In this document: piece by piece, positions 46,513 to 63,745 of the stretch
Layout: the number at the start of each line of letters is the position of its first letter
How positions within the stretch are numbered: the first letter of the stretch is position 1
Assembly (NCBI GenBank): GCA_001805105.1
Contig: MHEE01000012.1
Coordinates: forward strand, 171,127 to 235,126
Length of the DNA: 64,000 bases
DNA from: Nitrospirae bacterium GWF2_44_13
GTDB lineage: Bacteria; Nitrospirota; Thermodesulfovibrionia; Thermodesulfovibrionales; UBA1546
Reading direction: 5' to 3'
The notes under the pieces: generated by a model
Database searches by the model: none
Seen by the model: only the letters and a program-made list of their open reading frames with translations
What the model was told of the DNA's origin: nothing
Made by a program: the position numbers and the translations under genes

Positions 46513-47484
46513 ATGAGGACTATCGCAGTCACAGGTTGTGCAGGATTTATCGGATGCAAGGTATCGGAAAAGCTGATTGAGGACGGCTATTCTGTCGTCG
46601 GCATTGACAACATTAATGATTATTATGATCCAAGGTTAAAGGAATGGCGGCTTGAACAGTTGAAAGGAAAAGGCTCAGGCTTTAATTTTTATAAATGTGA
46701 TATAGGCAATTACAATGAAGTCAAAAAAGTATTCGCCAATCACAAAATAGATGCGGTTATCAATCTTGCCGCGAGGGCAGGTGTGCGGGCATCGGTGGAA
46801 GACCCGTGGATATATCTTGATACAAATGTTAAGGGGACATTAAATCTCCTTGAGTGCTGTAAAAACTTCGATACAAAAAAATTCGTACTGGCCTCTACAT
46901 CAAGCATCTATGGGCTTAACAAGATGCCCTTTAAAGAGACCGACAACACAGACCATCCATTAGCTCCGTATTCTGCTACAAAAAAAGGCGCTGAGGCGAT
47001 ATGCCACAGCTATCATTATCTTTCAGGCCTTGACATAAGCATCCCAAGATACTTCACTGTGTACGGACCGGCAGGCAGGCCTGATATGAGCATATTCAGA
47101 TTCATTAAAAACATTGACAACGAAAGGCCCATCCCTGTCTTTGGCAACGGGAAACAAACAAGAGACTTTACCTATATTGACGACATAGCAGACGGAACAA
47201 TAAAATGCCTTCAGCCGTTCGGTTATGAAATCTTTAACTTCGGCAGCGACAAGCCTGTGGAACTGATGTATGTAATAAACCTGATAGAGCAGCGCCTCGG
47301 GAAAAAGGCAGAGATAGAATGGCTGCCTATACACCCGGCAGATGTGCTGGCGACATGGGCAGACATAGAAAAATCAAAAGAGAAACTCGGATGGGAACCG
47401 ACCGTTTCAATAGAAGAAGGCGTACAACATACAGTTGACTGGTATCTAAAGAACAGGGAATTTTTAAACAGGCTTAAAGATTAA
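46513..47484 (+). CDS. NAD-dependent nucleotide-sugar epimerase (UDP-glucuronate 4-epimerase-like); the only plus-strand gene
   Basis: MRTIAVTGCAGFIGCKVSEKLIEDGYSVVGIDNINDYYDPRLKEWRL, YSATKKGAE. Confidence 0.7.
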   Translation: MRTIAVTGCAGFIGCKVSEKLIEDGYSVVGIDNINDYYDPRLKEWRLEQLKGKGSGFNFYKCDIGNYNEVKKVFANHKIDAVINLAARAGVRASVEDPWIYLDTNVKGTLNLLECCKNFDTKKFVLASTSSIYGLNKMPFKETDNTDHPLAPYSATKKGAEAICHSYHYLSGLDISIPRYFTVYGPAGRPDMSIFRFIKNIDNERPIPVFGNGKQTRDFTYIDDIADGTIKCLQPFGYEIFNFGSDKPVELMYVINLIEQRLGKKAEIEWLPIHPADVLATWADIEKSKEKLGWEPTVSIEEGVQHTVDWYLKNREFLNRLKD

Positions 47485-47936
47485 AAATTCTTGTCATTAT
47501 CACAGTCAATAGCAAATGTGTCACCAGTTACCCTCGTGCCTGTATTGCCAGTAGCAACGGCCCTAAAACAAGGAGTTTTATTTCCATAGGTCGGCGGATT
47601 GGTACTAGTGTTAGTAATTTCCTCGTCTCTCACTATTATGTAGCTAAAGCTAAGATCAGCGCCAGGCCTAAATCCTGGTAGTACCGTAGCCGCCTGAATC
47701 AAAGCTACATTACCAAGCTGGTCAGCGCCTGCAACACCTGTTGTAGACGCATACATTGCATTCTCAGCATAGAACTGTTCCTCAAGAAGCCTCAAGGTCT
47801 GAAGATTTGTATATGCCTCTGTCCTTGTAGCGCTCTTCTGCTGACCGATATAAGCAGGGATTGCAATCATTGCAAGGATGCCGATAATAGCAACCACAAT
47901 CAAAAGCTCTGTTAAAGTAAAGCCTTTTTTATTCAT
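47481..47936 (-). CDS. Type IV pilin-like protein (prepilin N-terminal cleavage/methylation domain, C-terminal disulfide loop)
   Basis: Trimmed to ATG 47936 (AGGAGGTG 5 nt upstream). MNKKG|FTLTELLIVVAIIGILAMIAIPAY (G-1, F+1, E+5). Two Cys near the C-terminus (PCFRAV...AIDC). Confidence 0.85.
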   Translation of the reverse strand: MNKKGFTLTELLIVVAIIGILAMIAIPAYIGQQKSATRTEAYTNLQTLRLLEEQFYAENAMYASTTGVAGADQLGNVALIQAATVLPGFRPGADLSFSYIIVRDEEITNTSTNPPTYGNKTPCFRAVATGNTGTRVTGDTFAIDCDNDKNF

Positions 47937-48040
47937 AATCACCTCCTGAAAGTGTTTAAAGTAATTAAAAAACAATCTATCATTTTTAGACAGATTATTA
48001 CTTCCCTGAGTAATACCTTATTTACTATTGCTTCTAAACT

Positions 48041-49168
48041 TCAATTTTTCAACACTTTTTTAAAAGATTCTATTACATAACAGACCTCTGTATTGTCCAG
48101 ACGAGGATAAAGAGGAAGTGAAACTGTTCTTTTCCCTATGTCTTCAGCTACGGGGAAATCTCCTTCTTTATAGCCAAAAGTTTCTCTATAATATTTAAGC
48201 AAGTGAATTGGCCTATAATTGACAGCCACTCCTATACCTCTTTTTTGAAGCTTATGTAAAATTTCATCTCTTTTTTCGGGGCTAACAAGTATTGTAAAGA
48301 GATGTCTTGCATGTTTTGAATTCGAGACAGTCTTTAAAATCTCAATACCTTTTATATCTTTAAAGGCATCTTCATATATCTTCCATATCCTAACTCTTTG
48401 TGACCAAAGCTCCTCAATCCTCTGAAGCTGACCTATGAGCAAAGCAGCCTGAATATTATCCATGTTATATTTCCATCCGAGCACAGGCATATCCCAGTGC
48501 CTATAAATCTTTGTGTATCGGTCTAAGGCAGATTTATCAATGCCGTGCAGCCTTAACATCCTGATTATCTCTGCCTTTTCTGAACTGCTGGTCGTTACGG
48601 TTCCTCCTTCACCCGATGTTATATTCTTTGTTGCATAAAAACTGAAACATGCTGTTTCTGCCAGTTCTCCAACCCTTACTCCATCTCTTTCAGCCTCAAT
48701 TGCATGTGCTGCATCTTCTATGATTACAAGACTGTATTTATCCGCAATAGTTCTTATCTTTTGCATATTGCACATCTGTCCATATAGATGCACTGGCATT
48801 ATCGCCTTTGTTGTTTTCGTTATCGCCGCTTCAATGAGTTCAGCATTTATATTTCCTGTCTCTTTTTCAACATCAACAAATACCGGCGTGGCGCCTGCGT
48901 GAAGGATGGAGTTTGAAGTGGCGCAAAAGCTCATCGGCGTTGTTATGACCTCATCCCCCCTGCCAATGCCGTAAGCAAGAAGGCTCAAATGCAAAGCGGC
49001 AGTACAGCTTGTTACGCCTATGGCATGCTGCGCCTTAAGATATGCGGCAAACGAATTCTCAAACTCCGAAACAACCTGACCTGTCGTCAGGAATATGGAA
49101 TTTAAAACATCAGTCGCTCTCTTTATGTCATCCTGTTCGATGTTATGTTTAAAAAATTCTATTTTCAC
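48041..49168 (-). CDS. DegT/DnrJ/EryC1-family PLP sugar aminotransferase
   Basis: FSFYATKNITSGEGG (Schiff-base Lys present), GDEVITTPMSF, EDAAHA. Confidence 0.85.
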   Translation of the reverse strand: MKIEFFKHNIEQDDIKRATDVLNSIFLTTGQVVSEFENSFAAYLKAQHAIGVTSCTAALHLSLLAYGIGRGDEVITTPMSFCATSNSILHAGATPVFVDVEKETGNINAELIEAAITKTTKAIMPVHLYGQMCNMQKIRTIADKYSLVIIEDAAHAIEAERDGVRVGELAETACFSFYATKNITSGEGGTVTTSSSEKAEIIRMLRLHGIDKSALDRYTKIYRHWDMPVLGWKYNMDNIQAALLIGQLQRIEELWSQRVRIWKIYEDAFKDIKGIEILKTVSNSKHARHLFTILVSPEKRDEILHKLQKRGIGVAVNYRPIHLLKYYRETFGYKEGDFPVAEDIGKRTVSLPLYPRLDNTEVCYVIESFKKVLKN

Positions 49169-49171
49169 TTT

Positions 49172-63150: not shown

Positions 63151-63158
63151 AAATAGTT

Positions 63159-63195
63159 AGCTATCAGGTCCGGAAGGTTCCCGGCCCTGATAGCT
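63159..63195 (-). terminator. Strong stem-loop directly after the pilin stop (terminator/attenuator-like)
   Basis: AGCTATCAGG (63159-68) pairs perfectly with CCTGATAGCT (63186-95). Inner CCGG/CCGG (63170-73 / 63181-84), 7-nt loop. In the RNA sense it is followed by AACUAUUUAUG; the hairpin ends 8 nt before ATG 63150. Confidence 0.5.
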
Positions 63196-63211
63196 TGAAC
63201 CTGTTTCCCTT

Positions 63212-63745
63212 CTAATCTGAAAAAGCAGTCTTATTGTGGAGTACCCCACCAAGGCTATCAATAGCTGTAACCGTCAAACGGAAAGGCGAGTTTTCCTGAG
63301 ATACATATATCTGACCTGACGCTACAGCTAATGTCGCGGCCGTATTAAAAAGGCTTACGGAGGGGGACCATGGAGAGCTCTCTCTAAACATGGCATTCCT
63401 CGCACTTATATATACAGTATCAAGGGTGCCATTATTAAGATAAACACCTAATGACGTATTAGACTCATCAGCAGTAGTAATCTGCCCATCTCCATTTGAA
63501 TCCACCTCTCTGAGTGTGCCCTGTGTTCCTCCAACGCCTTTAAGTGCTGAATTAAGCCATGCCTGAAGTTCTGGCTCCACTGCTGTGGCAGCCCTTGTTA
63601 CCGCACCCTTTCTGCTTCTTTCTTGCATACCGATATATCCCGGAATTGCTATCGCGGCAAGGATTCCGATGATTGCCACAACGATAAGAAGCTCAATAAG
63701 GGTAAAGCCCTTTTGCTCCTTTATATTGTTAATTGCCTTATACAT
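63212..63745 (-). CDS. Type IV pilin-like protein (prepilin N-terminal domain), Cys-free globular domain
   Basis: MYKAINNIKEQKG|FTLIELLIVVAIIGILAAIAIPGY. AGGAGGAAAC immediately upstream of the ATG. 177 aa, no cysteine. Confidence 0.85.
   Translation of the reverse strand: MYKAINNIKEQKGFTLIELLIVVAIIGILAAIAIPGYIGMQERSRKGAVTRAATAVEPELQAWLNSALKGVGGTQGTLREVDSNGDGQITTADESNTSLGVYLNNGTLDTVYISARNAMFRESSPWSPSVSLFNTAATLAVASGQIYVSQENSPFRLTVTAIDSLGGVLHNKTAFSD

Follow-up and report, generated by a model that had tools for sequence, protein, structure and literature searches.

A candidate TfpW-like pilin glycosylation island with exchangeable sugar cassettes in uncultivated Nitrospirota

Pilin glycosylation is known in detail from a few pathogens only, and the variant that employs a glycosyltransferase of the C fold (GT-C) has so far been characterized essentially for TfpW and a few proteobacterial homologs, with one sugar. 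TfpW was reportedly described by Kus et al. in 2008 as a GT-C pilin arabinosyltransferase of the Pseudomonas aeruginosa group IV strains Pa5196/PA7. In the Arn system, ArnC loads a 4-N-acylated amino sugar onto undecaprenyl phosphate (Und-P) for the GT-C ArnT. The stretch of 64,000 nucleotides analyzed here (hereafter the window, which denotes the whole stretch) comes from a Thermodesulfovibrionia-type Nitrospirae metagenome-assembled genome and contains an island of 16 tightly packed minus-strand genes, running from 63745 to 47481, of which the first and the last encode prepilins and the rest encode sugar and glycan enzymes only. We consider it probable that this is a pilin glycosylation island, TfpW-like and three-component in style, which uses Und-P-linked N-acetylated amino-deoxyhexoses and has the pilins as acceptors.

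TfpW is a protein of 646 amino acids with a cytoplasmic N-terminus, 11 transmembrane (TM) helices, a periplasmic C-terminal tetratricopeptide repeat (TPR) region and an essential acidic motif; its gene lies just after pilA, and it arabinosylates the group IV pilin (10.1101/2020.04.19.049825). The ‘three-component’ logic consists of a polyprenyl phosphate glycosyltransferase, a flippase and a GT-C (PMC11127046), and the pair of PgfS and the GT-C PgfM1 puts N-acetylgalactosamine on Ser/Thr residues of exported proteins (PMC12041528). The genes of the island were assigned with Pfam and NCBIfam (E-values are given after the family names) and are listed in the order of transcription.

63212..63745, minus strand: pilin 1, A-type prepilin, 177 amino acids (N_methyl, PF07963, 7.9e-10; TIGR02532, 3.6e-10)
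61295..63150, minus strand: candidate GT-C/TPR membrane glycosyltransferase, about 618 amino acids if the A10 tract is bridged (homolog length, alignment, AlphaFold2 model)
63120..63129, minus strand: A10 homopolymer that splits the ATG at 63148-63150 from the GT-C frame
60315..61244, minus strand: GT2a, ArnC/PgfS/GtrB-type polyprenyl phosphate family 2 glycosyltransferase (GT2) with a hydrophobic C-terminal region (Glycos_transf_2, 6e-33; PgfS, 3e-80; ArnC, 4e-70)
59594..60322, minus strand: GNAT N-acetyltransferase, WecD-like (4-amino-4,6-dideoxyhexose) (NF008212, 3.5e-33; Acetyltransf_1, 1e-16)
58581..59597, minus strand: Gfo/Idh/MocA protein, UDP-GlcNAc 3-dehydrogenase-like (WbpB-like step) (NF040723, 2e-50; GFO_IDH_MocA, 9e-26)
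57925..58584, minus strand: hexapeptide sugar N-acetyltransferase, NeuD/PglB/VioB type (TIGR03570, 6.6e-28; Hexapep, 1.4e-25)
56822..57958, minus strand: DegT-family sugar aminotransferase (PF01041, 7e-124)
55811..56818, minus strand: short-chain dehydrogenase/reductase (SDR), LegB-like nucleoside diphosphate (NDP)-sugar 4,6-dehydratase (TIGR04180, 8e-64; Epimerase, 2e-59)
54690..55814, minus strand: DegT-family 4-aminotransferase, PseC/ArnB-like (PF01041, 8e-119; PseC, 4.6e-98; ArnB, 5e-92)
54244..54714, minus strand: small hexapeptide acetyltransferase (Hexapep, 1.3e-9; TIGR03570, 8e-14)
53293..54228, minus strand: GT2b, second ArnC/PgfS-type polyprenyl phosphate glycosyltransferase (PgfS, 2.8e-67; ArnC, 1.9e-55)
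51770..53296, minus strand: B12-binding radical SAM protein, methyltransferase-like (B12-binding, 1.5e-20; Radical_SAM, 7e-26)
50232..51809, minus strand: second GT-C, PMT_2 (ArnT/PMT clan), 525 amino acids (PF13231, 1.8e-9; 38.5 bits against a cut-off of 26.1)
49172..50200, minus strand: RmlB-like NDP-glucose 4,6-dehydratase (TIGR01181, 1.8e-92)
48041..49168, minus strand: DegT-family 4-aminotransferase, the third DegT protein (PF01041, 8e-130; PseC, 2.7e-111)
47481..47936, minus strand: pilin 2, B-type prepilin, 151 amino acids (N_methyl, PF07963, 5e-8; TIGR02532, 2e-9)

Between the two pilin genes there are thus sugar-nucleotide tailoring enzymes, two ArnC/PgfS-like GT2s, two GT-Cs and one B12 radical SAM enzyme. 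The first-pass annotation of this DNA had described a 16-gene glycan module between two pilin genes; all open reading frames (ORFs) were confirmed, and their Pfam and NCBIfam content agrees with that description.

The pilin gene, the GT-C/TPR gene and the second pilin gene form a frame that stays constant among changing sugar genes and chromosomal flanks. A scan limited to one genome for each species yielded at least 571 relatives within the broader GT-C family; 77 loci were analyzed, and the 16 window proteins were mapped onto each locus by phmmer. Close homologs of the GT-C/TPR protein were those with a phmmer score of at least 290, corresponding to about 32% identity or higher, and with sufficient DNA upstream (n = 43); linkage was defined by a prepilin ORF that ends no more than 600 bp upstream on the same strand. 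A prepilin gene lies directly upstream of the GT-C gene in 35/43 close homologs, or 36/43 after correction of a scoring artifact in locus L014, and two further copies of the 43 follow a tandem GT-C paralog; among more distant GT-C homologs, the count is 0/49. The reciprocal test started from three homologs of the A-type pilin chosen by similarity alone on long contigs, and in 3/3 cases the GT-C, the B-type pilin, a GT2 and sugar genes follow. A fortuitous adjacency of pilin and GT-C genes, in which the pilins would be missing from otherwise similar loci of relatives, is ruled out by the 36/43 forward linkage and the 3/3 reciprocal loci. The frame recurs over dozens of uncultivated Nitrospirota genomes, with about 40 pilin-linked loci examined.

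The broader family also includes tandem GT-C/TPR paralogs, two in loci L013, L017, L022, L031 and L032 and three in L045, L047, L052 and L081; the pilin-less tandem arrays represent a more distant branch.

The sugar genes occupy either of two positions. The order A-type pilin, GT-C, B-type pilin, sugar genes is found in L021, L025, L034, L036 and L086-L088; in others, including the window, the sugar genes are inserted between the GT-C and the B-type pilin gene. At least three types of cassettes accompany the constant genes.

Cassette I: GT2a, WecD-like GNAT, RmlB-like dehydratase, DegT
Cassette II: 3-dehydrogenase, acetyltransferase, DegT, 4,6-dehydratase, DegT, acetyltransferase, GT2b
Cassette III: SDR, methyltransferase, GT2, nucleotidyltransferase, SDR

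The window combines cassettes I and II, which occur separately in relatives, and adds the radical SAM enzyme and the PMT_2 GT-C. The 16-gene string is, in other words, a composite. In L004, L011, L036, L044, L047 and L088, the WecD-like GNAT is accompanied by GT2a, the RmlB-like dehydratase and DegT; GT2b closes the cassette that extends from the Gfo to the hexapeptide gene in L002, L003, L005, L008 and L010, and the B12 radical SAM gene also follows GT2b in L001 and L021. The PMT_2 GT-C was matched only in L001, the closest relative, among the fetched loci (the fetched DNA of L006, L007, L021 and L087 ends earlier), and looks like a lineage-specific addition. Differing cassettes are found even in islands with the same upstream neighbor, a BcrAD_BadFG/DUF2229 gene (window, L086, L087).

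The compact islands L002, L003 and L085 consist of the pilins, the GT-C, six sugar-nucleotide enzymes and one ArnC/PgfS-like GT2, with GspG/GspF-like genes upstream, and sit between purine-biosynthesis and other housekeeping genes. No called gene in these three islands has a Pfam match to a priming transferase, Wzx/Wzy or an exporter; lacking a priming transferase, flippase, polymerase and exporter, the compact islands alone would make a lipid-linked monosaccharide only and no polysaccharide. The pilins are the sole conserved candidate acceptors encoded there.

The first gene after the leading pilin had been annotated as a GT-C-like protein with TPRs, which the structural model bears out, and the gene turned out to be longer than its canonical ORF. 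That ORF (61295-62809, 504 amino acids; the annotated form, P0001, has 500) is too short, and the frame is open to 63127. With the out-of-frame N-terminus MTIIEFYKKK prepended, a 618-residue reconstruction was obtained and used as the query, 98% of which is covered by homologs of 605-620 amino acids; one of its matches, from ‘Nitrospirae bacterium GWF2_44_13’, has 100% identity. Although no Pfam or NCBIfam family covers its membrane part, the protein is modeled with confidence by AlphaFold2 (pLDDT 83.4, pTM 0.80), and Foldseek comparison of the model with the PDB retrieves, with probability 1.00, STT3A (6.4e-7), yeast Stt3 (1.7e-5), PglB (4.6e-5) and AftA (1.3e-4). On the strength of this model, the first membrane protein has the GT-C fold; the TM-scores of 0.44-0.52 indicate the common fold and no specific subfamily. 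In the modeled layout, membrane helices extend to about residue 390 and are followed by a mixed alpha/beta domain (405-540) and TPR-like helices (544-617). The C-terminal region matches Pfam TPR_1/TPR_2 at a sub-threshold level (about 5e-4) and TPR designs in the PDB at 4.5e-5, and a GT-C profile search against PDB chain sequences retrieved TPR proteins only. The motif L[FW]DxDFWWH (LFDSDFWWH in the window, with D38-x-D40) comes directly after TM1 and a Lys-rich N-terminus; D38 and D40 are present in 17/17 sequences of the alignment denoted A2, in which W42, W43, H44 and the motifs GERPVL, WSNLHGGF, IQEY and GGYxxWRLYPW are invariant as well.

The comparison with TfpW rests on the published description of that protein and concerns architecture. 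The two share an N-in polytopic domain, an acidic motif in a periplasmic loop that is essential in one and invariant in the other, a C-terminal TPR and a gene located right after a pilin gene, with a gap of 61 nt in the window from the pilin stop codon to the ATG; in both cases, the donor is, or would be, a polyprenyl phosphate-linked single sugar provided by separate enzymes, and no dedicated flippase has been identified. There are also differences. The acidic motif is DDX in TfpW and DxD here (D-S-D or D-Y-D), and the TfpW motif YX6PFX7P is represented by an invariant Y429-x6-P436-W from which the final P is absent. TfpW uses decaprenyl-phospho-arabinose, made via DprE1/DprE2, whereas the island has ArnC/PgfS-type GT2s and amino-sugar enzymes, and no DprE1/DprE2-like or phosphoribosyl pyrophosphate-transferase gene was found in the cassette. 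Furthermore, the island has no TfpX-like gene, includes a second pilin gene and exchangeable sugar cassettes, and belongs to the phylum Nitrospirota. By analogy, the island would work like a TfpW fed by a PgfS/ArnC-type donor route, yet its motif and its donor are not those of TfpW.

Both GT2s match ArnC and PgfS over the full length (residues 4-306 of GT2a match positions 5-311 of the 316 of the ArnC model), in line with the original annotation of an ArnC-like GT2 after the GT-C, and score below the equivalog cut-offs of these families; they are best regarded, from such similarity, as members of the ArnC/GtrB/PgfS family and not as orthologs. The Pgf system of Streptococcus mutans (PgfS, PgfM1/PgfM2) and GtrB/PgtC2 of S. 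pyogenes resemble the island in that a GT2 loads a single sugar on Und-P and a GT-C with a DxD motif transfers it to Ser/Thr (PMC12041528); moreover, both GT2s have PgfS as their best match in NCBIfam, and both loci contain two GT-Cs. The Pgf GT-Cs, however, are YfhO-family proteins without TPRs that act on Ser/Thr-rich disordered tails of many proteins, in contrast to the Pfam-less, TPR-bearing, pilin-linked GT-C of the island with its GT2s under the PgfS cut-off. With the Arn (PmrF) system of ArnB, ArnC and ArnT, the island shares a DegT 4-aminotransferase, 4-amino N-acylation, an ArnC-type GT2 and a periplasmic PMT_2 GT-C, but its predicted sugars are hexose-derived and acetylated, its conserved genetic partner is a pilin gene instead of lipid A genes, and, by Pfam and NCBIfam, the cassette genes include no ArnA formyltransferase/decarboxylase, ArnD deformylase or ArnE/F SMR-like flippase.

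The TfpO/PilO and PglL transferases are similar in acting on pilin in the periplasm, and the TfpO gene is also located directly after pilA, but these enzymes have a different fold and family (Wzy_C) and transfer preassembled oligosaccharides linked to undecaprenyl diphosphate; neither GT-C of the island matches Wzy_C even at E <= 10. The eukaryotic O-mannosyltransferases TMTC1-4 are also GT-Cs fused to lumenal/extracytoplasmic TPRs, which carry out protein O-glycosylation from a polyprenyl phosphate-linked monosaccharide, and differ in their many TPRs, PMT-clan membrane domain and cadherin substrates (PMC7801869); the likeness is one of architecture. The island is not a PglL/TfpO, PglB or Arn system. 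A Wzy_C protein 18 kb downstream had been put forward as a possible part of the system; this does not hold, since that ORF, the only Wzy_C-like one in the window, is interrupted by a TAG codon, matches Wzy_C below threshold and belongs to a separate polysaccharide cluster.

28755-30176: TAG-interrupted polytopic membrane ORF of 473 codons, TAG at 29574-29576 (Wzy_C, PF04932, E 0.003, 17.7 bits against a cut-off of 31.7)
30173-31642: Wzy-type polymerase candidate (TIGR04370, 2e-9; no Wzy_C match)

The interrupted ORF adjoins this polymerase candidate and a DUF2079 protein. A Wzy_C/PglL-type transferase as a component of the system was rejected, as neither of the two ORFs travels with the cassette.

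The gene content, the GT-C fold and the conserved frame with its exchangeable cassettes are established by the analysis. On this basis, the following sequence of events can be envisaged, in which the acceptor, the linkage type and the identities of the sugars are what we infer. Cytoplasmic enzymes would build two NDP-activated N-acetylated amino-deoxyhexoses: cassette I (RmlB-like dehydratase, DegT and WecD-like GNAT) could yield a 4-acetamido-4,6-dideoxyhexose, and cassette II, with its 3-dehydrogenase, aminotransferase and acetyltransferase followed by the 4,6-dehydratase, aminotransferase and acetyltransferase, a di- or tri-acetamido deoxyhexose, these assignments being suggested by family-level similarity. 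GT2a and GT2b would each put one sugar on Und-P, and a putative flippase would turn the lipid-linked sugar to the periplasm. The GT-C/TPR enzyme, with its invariant DxD loop predicted to face the periplasm and its TPR domain presumably free for protein binding, would then move the sugar onto the inner-membrane-anchored pilin before assembly, probably at Ser/Thr. Finally, the PMT_2 GT-C and the B12 radical SAM enzyme might add, extend or modify a second sugar or the glycan. O-linkage is favored because an N-x-S/T sequon at N96 of pilin 1 occurs in 12/51 orthologs (with D/E at position -2 in 2/51), the WWDYG motif is not seen in the GT-C/TPR sequence or in alignment A2, and the predicted donors are monophosphate-linked monosaccharides.

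The two pilins belong to two orthologous groups, A and B. The class III signal is canonical in both (KG/FTL[IT]ELL, the slash separating leader and mature protein), with the N_methyl motif of type IV pilins: pilin 1 has the leader MYKAINNIKEQKG before FTLIELL and the mature start FTLIELLIVVAIIGILAAIAIP after KG, and pilin 2 has the leader MNKKG before FTLTELL and the mature start FTLTELLIVVAIIGILAMIAIP after KG. Pilin 1 has 2574 homologs with E-values of 1e-5 or lower; the alignments of the 120 listed span 81-100% of the query. Its AlphaFold2 model (pLDDT 87), with the alpha1 helix at 16-72, a loop, two short helices and a four-stranded sheet, is consistent with a pilin topology. The A-type signature, ...IPGY[LI]GMQER[GS]RKGAVTRA..., is combined with an EF-hand-like calcium-binding loop located after alpha1 (DSNGDGQITTAD in pilin 1, 63467-63502, residues 82-93), the consensus of which, EVDxxGDGxxxxxD, is conserved over 51 A-type orthologs. 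The B-type signature is ...IPAYIGQQ..A.RTEAY.NL..., with a C-terminal disulfide loop, PCF..GTRV.GD.F.IDCNNNRNF; the C-terminal Cys pair (PCF...IDC) is found in pilin 2 and likewise in 29/30 orthologs, and the B-type genes (n = 30) either close the cassette or come directly after the GT-C.

Three further proposals concerning the pilins were rejected. The segment TNTSTNPPTY of pilin 2 is no conserved acceptor, as it falls in a lineage-specific insertion that is gapped in most orthologs; N-glycosylation at the E-S-N-T-S sequon of pilin 1 is ruled out as a conserved feature by the low ortholog counts given above, and the two motifs by which the earlier annotation had argued for modification of the pilins, the Ser/Thr/Asn-rich segments and the E-x-N-x-S sequon, do not hold as support. 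The B-type pilin is not a TfpX/TfpY-like accessory either, because its fold differs and those proteins have three TM helices (PMC11841053). In locus L005 (19669-20997), the B-type pilin gene is reduced to two short remnants with a nucleotidyltransferase/HepT toxin-antitoxin pair between them, showing that the island end is a site of insertion and decay.

Glycosylation of pilins by a TfpW-kind system, as originally proposed, is thus supported by the conserved frame, the GT-C fold and the GT2s; the modification itself we infer from genes and models. Several observations weigh against it. Eight of the 43 loci failed the automatic prepilin test: besides the artifact in L014 and the two copies that follow a tandem paralog, L012b and L043b are second copies whose first copy lies behind a pilin, in L030 and L041 a pilin gene is located farther upstream, at about 2-2.5 kb, and L051 has none upstream. 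The Ser/Thr/Asn-rich segments of the pilins are not conserved, and no acceptor site can be named. Pilin 1 contains no cysteines, while the Cys pair is kept in 33/51 orthologs, and its modeled globular domain appears to have no significant structural neighbor, the Foldseek search of the PDB yielding at best the pilins 6i2o and 8pfb at E about 1. No flippase gene was detected in any cassette examined. PMT_2 is also the ArnT family, so that the substrate of the second GT-C could be lipid A or some other glycan. Pilus-assembly genes are lacking in the module, as had been noted, and none was found among the annotated window ORFs (at least 120 amino acids across 1-47000, plus the island region) or within 10 kb past the window end in the same strain. 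To these points are added the reading frame of the GT-C gene in the window strain and the Gsp-like genes of some relatives, which bear on the alternatives considered below. Regarding the cysteines, 10/51 A-type orthologs are also cysteine-free, and pilin 1 of the window has lost both.

The GT-C gene is out of frame in the window strain. The sole plausible ATG (63148-63150) is followed by seven codons and the A10 tract, across which it is out of frame, and the GT-C frame is reached only via a -1 shift or an eleventh A in the mRNA, with MTIIEFYKKKNLK... as the predicted peptide at the junction. There is no in-frame ATG, GTG or TTG ahead of the DxD loop in the window gene, and the first canonical in-frame start (62809) would drop TM1 and D38 to H44. 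The tract is identical in three independent assemblies, which rules out a sequencing error as the cause. The same design, with the same correction, is seen in L005 (59% identity; 9673-9710) and L089 (69% identity; 925-945); further relatives have A9/A10 tracts in frame, and in the other surveyed homologs the motif is preceded, at a distance of about 29 residues, by an ATG in frame. These data could mean that the system is off or decaying in the window strain, with unglycosylated pilins and a cassette that is a phase-OFF or pseudogenized copy, a possibility which deserves attention but which we find doubtful: the remaining 610 GT-C codons are intact and conserved (71% identity to P0002), as are, with respect to intactness, all 14 downstream genes, and the three out-of-frame cases need one and the same fix (+1 A or -1 shift) on a slippery A run, a pattern more readily explained by transcriptional slippage, programmed frameshifting or a reversible phase variation than by decay. 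The A10 design points to transcriptional slippage, programmed frameshifting or phase variation more than to a sequencing error, and a full-length GT-C in the window strain needs slippage at the tract, such that expression may be low, switchable or off.

It is unlikely that the GT2/GT-C pairs decorate a periplasmic non-protein glycan (lipid A, O-antigen or exopolysaccharide), as in the Arn, Gtr and YfhO systems, with the pilins being co-regulated or co-inherited neighbors. The similarity to Arn is substantial (ArnC scores of 4e-70 for GT2a and 2e-55 for GT2b, DegT against ArnB up to 5e-92, a second GT-C in PMT_2), the island abuts a very large polysaccharide cluster in the window, and distant GT-C homologs in Geobacter, Anaerolineae and Burkholderiales have a GT2 neighbor and no pilin. 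However, close relatives have retained the upstream prepilin in 36/43 cases together with a second pilin, located either within the cassette or at its end, whereas the polysaccharide neighbors are not conserved; the compact islands have no polysaccharide assembly or export genes; and ArnA, ArnD and ArnE/F are absent from the cassette.

The Gsp-like genes raise another alternative, namely that the pilins serve as pseudopilins in a piston of a type II secretion-like or polysaccharide-export kind, an idea put forward for the Hps pseudopilins of Nostoc, and that the module makes and exports a glycan and leaves the pilins unmodified. In L003 (6066-9129), the A-type pilin is immediately preceded by GspF-, G-, H-, I- and J-like genes, a lone GspG-like gene occupies this place in L002 (8062-8496) and L085 (8048-8479), and these genes are located between RadC and the island; in view of these genes, which some relatives have ahead of the pilin, the filament may be a pseudopilus. 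Overlaps of a few bases between the B-type pilin gene and the GT-C and GT2 genes are frequent, furthermore, and suggest expression at the level of an enzyme and not of a filament, and no pilBCMNOPQ genes are nearby. We nevertheless regard this alternative as very unlikely: like major type IVa pilin genes, the A-type gene is served by a conserved sigma54 promoter of its own and by a strong Shine-Dalgarno (SD) sequence; its product matches PilA better than GspG at the N-terminus, and those loci have a separate GspG-like gene; the islands have no polymerase, priming transferase or secretin, and their GT2s are expected to make lipid-linked monosaccharides only; and the Hps pseudopilin models matched none of the window proteins scanned. 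That the GT-C is an N-oligosaccharyltransferase of the PglB/STT3/AglB kind acting on a pilin Asn, as the best Foldseek matches and the E-S-N-T-S sequence of pilin 1 might suggest, is hardly credible in view of the invisible WWDYG, the rare sequon, the monophosphate-linked single sugars (instead of diphosphate-linked oligosaccharides) implied by the ArnC/PgfS-like GT2s, and TM-scores that reflect the general GT-C fold.

Pilin glycosylation therefore remains the interpretation that we prefer, and a more far-reaching version of it is offered tentatively: the Pfam-less GT-C/TPR family might represent unrecognized, phylum-wide and dedicated pilin glycosyltransferases encoded in a ‘plug-and-play’ island, which keeps its GT-C and both pilin genes, exchanges the cassettes for rare poly-N-acetylated amino sugars and has the enzyme toggled by slippage on the 5' poly-A tract, so that the pilus surface varies among uncultivated anaerobic Nitrospirota, plausibly driven by pilus-specific phages as in Pseudomonas. 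Full-text literature searches yielded no paper that ties pilin glycosylation to Nitrospirota or describes the cassette. If the preferred interpretation is correct, the family, with its at least 571 broader relatives among species-representative genomes, would be a second one, much larger than that of TfpW, in which the enzyme, its probable substrates and variable donor pathways are encoded side by side. It would provide a natural series of enzymes, pilins and sugars in which the recognition of protein acceptors by a GT-C can be studied, offer candidates for glyco-engineering based on rare amino sugars, and make surface variation, and possibly phage evasion, accessible in uncultivated Nitrospirota that are abundant in groundwater and sediment; in any case, a GT-C family missing from Pfam and NCBIfam is hereby flagged.

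The expression signals around pilin 1 that had been picked out at the outset, namely the strong SD, the sigma54 candidate and the hairpin after the gene, as well as the SD of pilin 2, are all present in the sequence.

63920..63935, minus strand: sigma54-type promoter-like element TGGCATAAAAACTGCT (TGGCAT-N5-CTGCT), 190 nt upstream of the pilin 1 ATG
63155..63201, minus strand: hairpin in the intergenic stretch from the pilin 1 stop codon to the start of the GT-C gene (predicted RNA folding energy -27.2 kcal/mol, z = -4.79)

The promoter-like element matches TGGCAC-N5-TTGCW at 9/11 positions with the exact GG-N10-GC spacing. A match of at least 9/11 is found 90-190 nt upstream of 32/49 A-type pilin genes, in 3% of random windows and in front of 0/29 B-type genes. 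The SD sequences are AGGAGG ahead of the ATG at 63745 (pilin 1) and AGGAGGTG ahead of the ATG at 47936 (pilin 2). None of 200 shuffled sequences (0/200) folds as well as the hairpin, and L005 has a GC-rich inverted repeat, GGGAGGC...GCCTCCC, at the equivalent position (read by eye in the sequence). By comparison with the sigma54/PilR control of pilA genes, the combination of promoter, strong SD and hairpin resembles a sigma54-driven major-pilin gene with attenuated read-through into the modifying enzyme.

The edges of the island can be placed on both sides. Past the window end, as seen in L006 and L007 (other assemblies of the same population), a divergent BcrAD_BadFG/DUF2229 gene of 1384-1454 residues lies upstream of pilin 1 and is followed by a tRNA synthetase and then by a hybrid histidine kinase, which indicates that the island begins at pilin 1. 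In relatives, the second pilin is the end of the cassette and unrelated genes come after it; hence the convergent SDR gene and everything below it in the window are a separate unit.

46513-47484, plus strand: SDR/epimerase gene, convergent to the island

The stop codon of pilin 2 overlaps the end of this gene by 4 nt (47481-47484), at the junction of the island and the neighboring cluster. A separate and very large polysaccharide cluster without pilus-assembly genes fills the rest of the window; it comprises rml genes, a helix-turn-helix/NusG-paralog pair, UDP-glucose dehydrogenase, a Wzy-like polymerase, DUF2079, two GT1-like genes and 10 radical SAM genes. At 41761-42884, a winged-helix regulator and a NusG paralog are encoded transcriptionally upstream of the UDP-glucose dehydrogenase and B12-radical SAM/GT2 genes of this cluster, an arrangement reminiscent of the operon-specific antitermination of long polysaccharide operons. 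Radical SAM genes reach an unusually high density, with 11 in 64 kb, 10 of them with a B12-binding domain and all amid sugar-nucleotide and glycosyltransferase genes.

1071-2915, 6300-8249, 8260-9627, 9627-11027, 11037-12362, 12362-14005: radical SAM genes
33411-34868, 34917-36335, 37093-38529, 38538-40031, 51770-53296: further radical SAM genes

This density suggests glycans that are heavily C-methylated or otherwise radical-modified.

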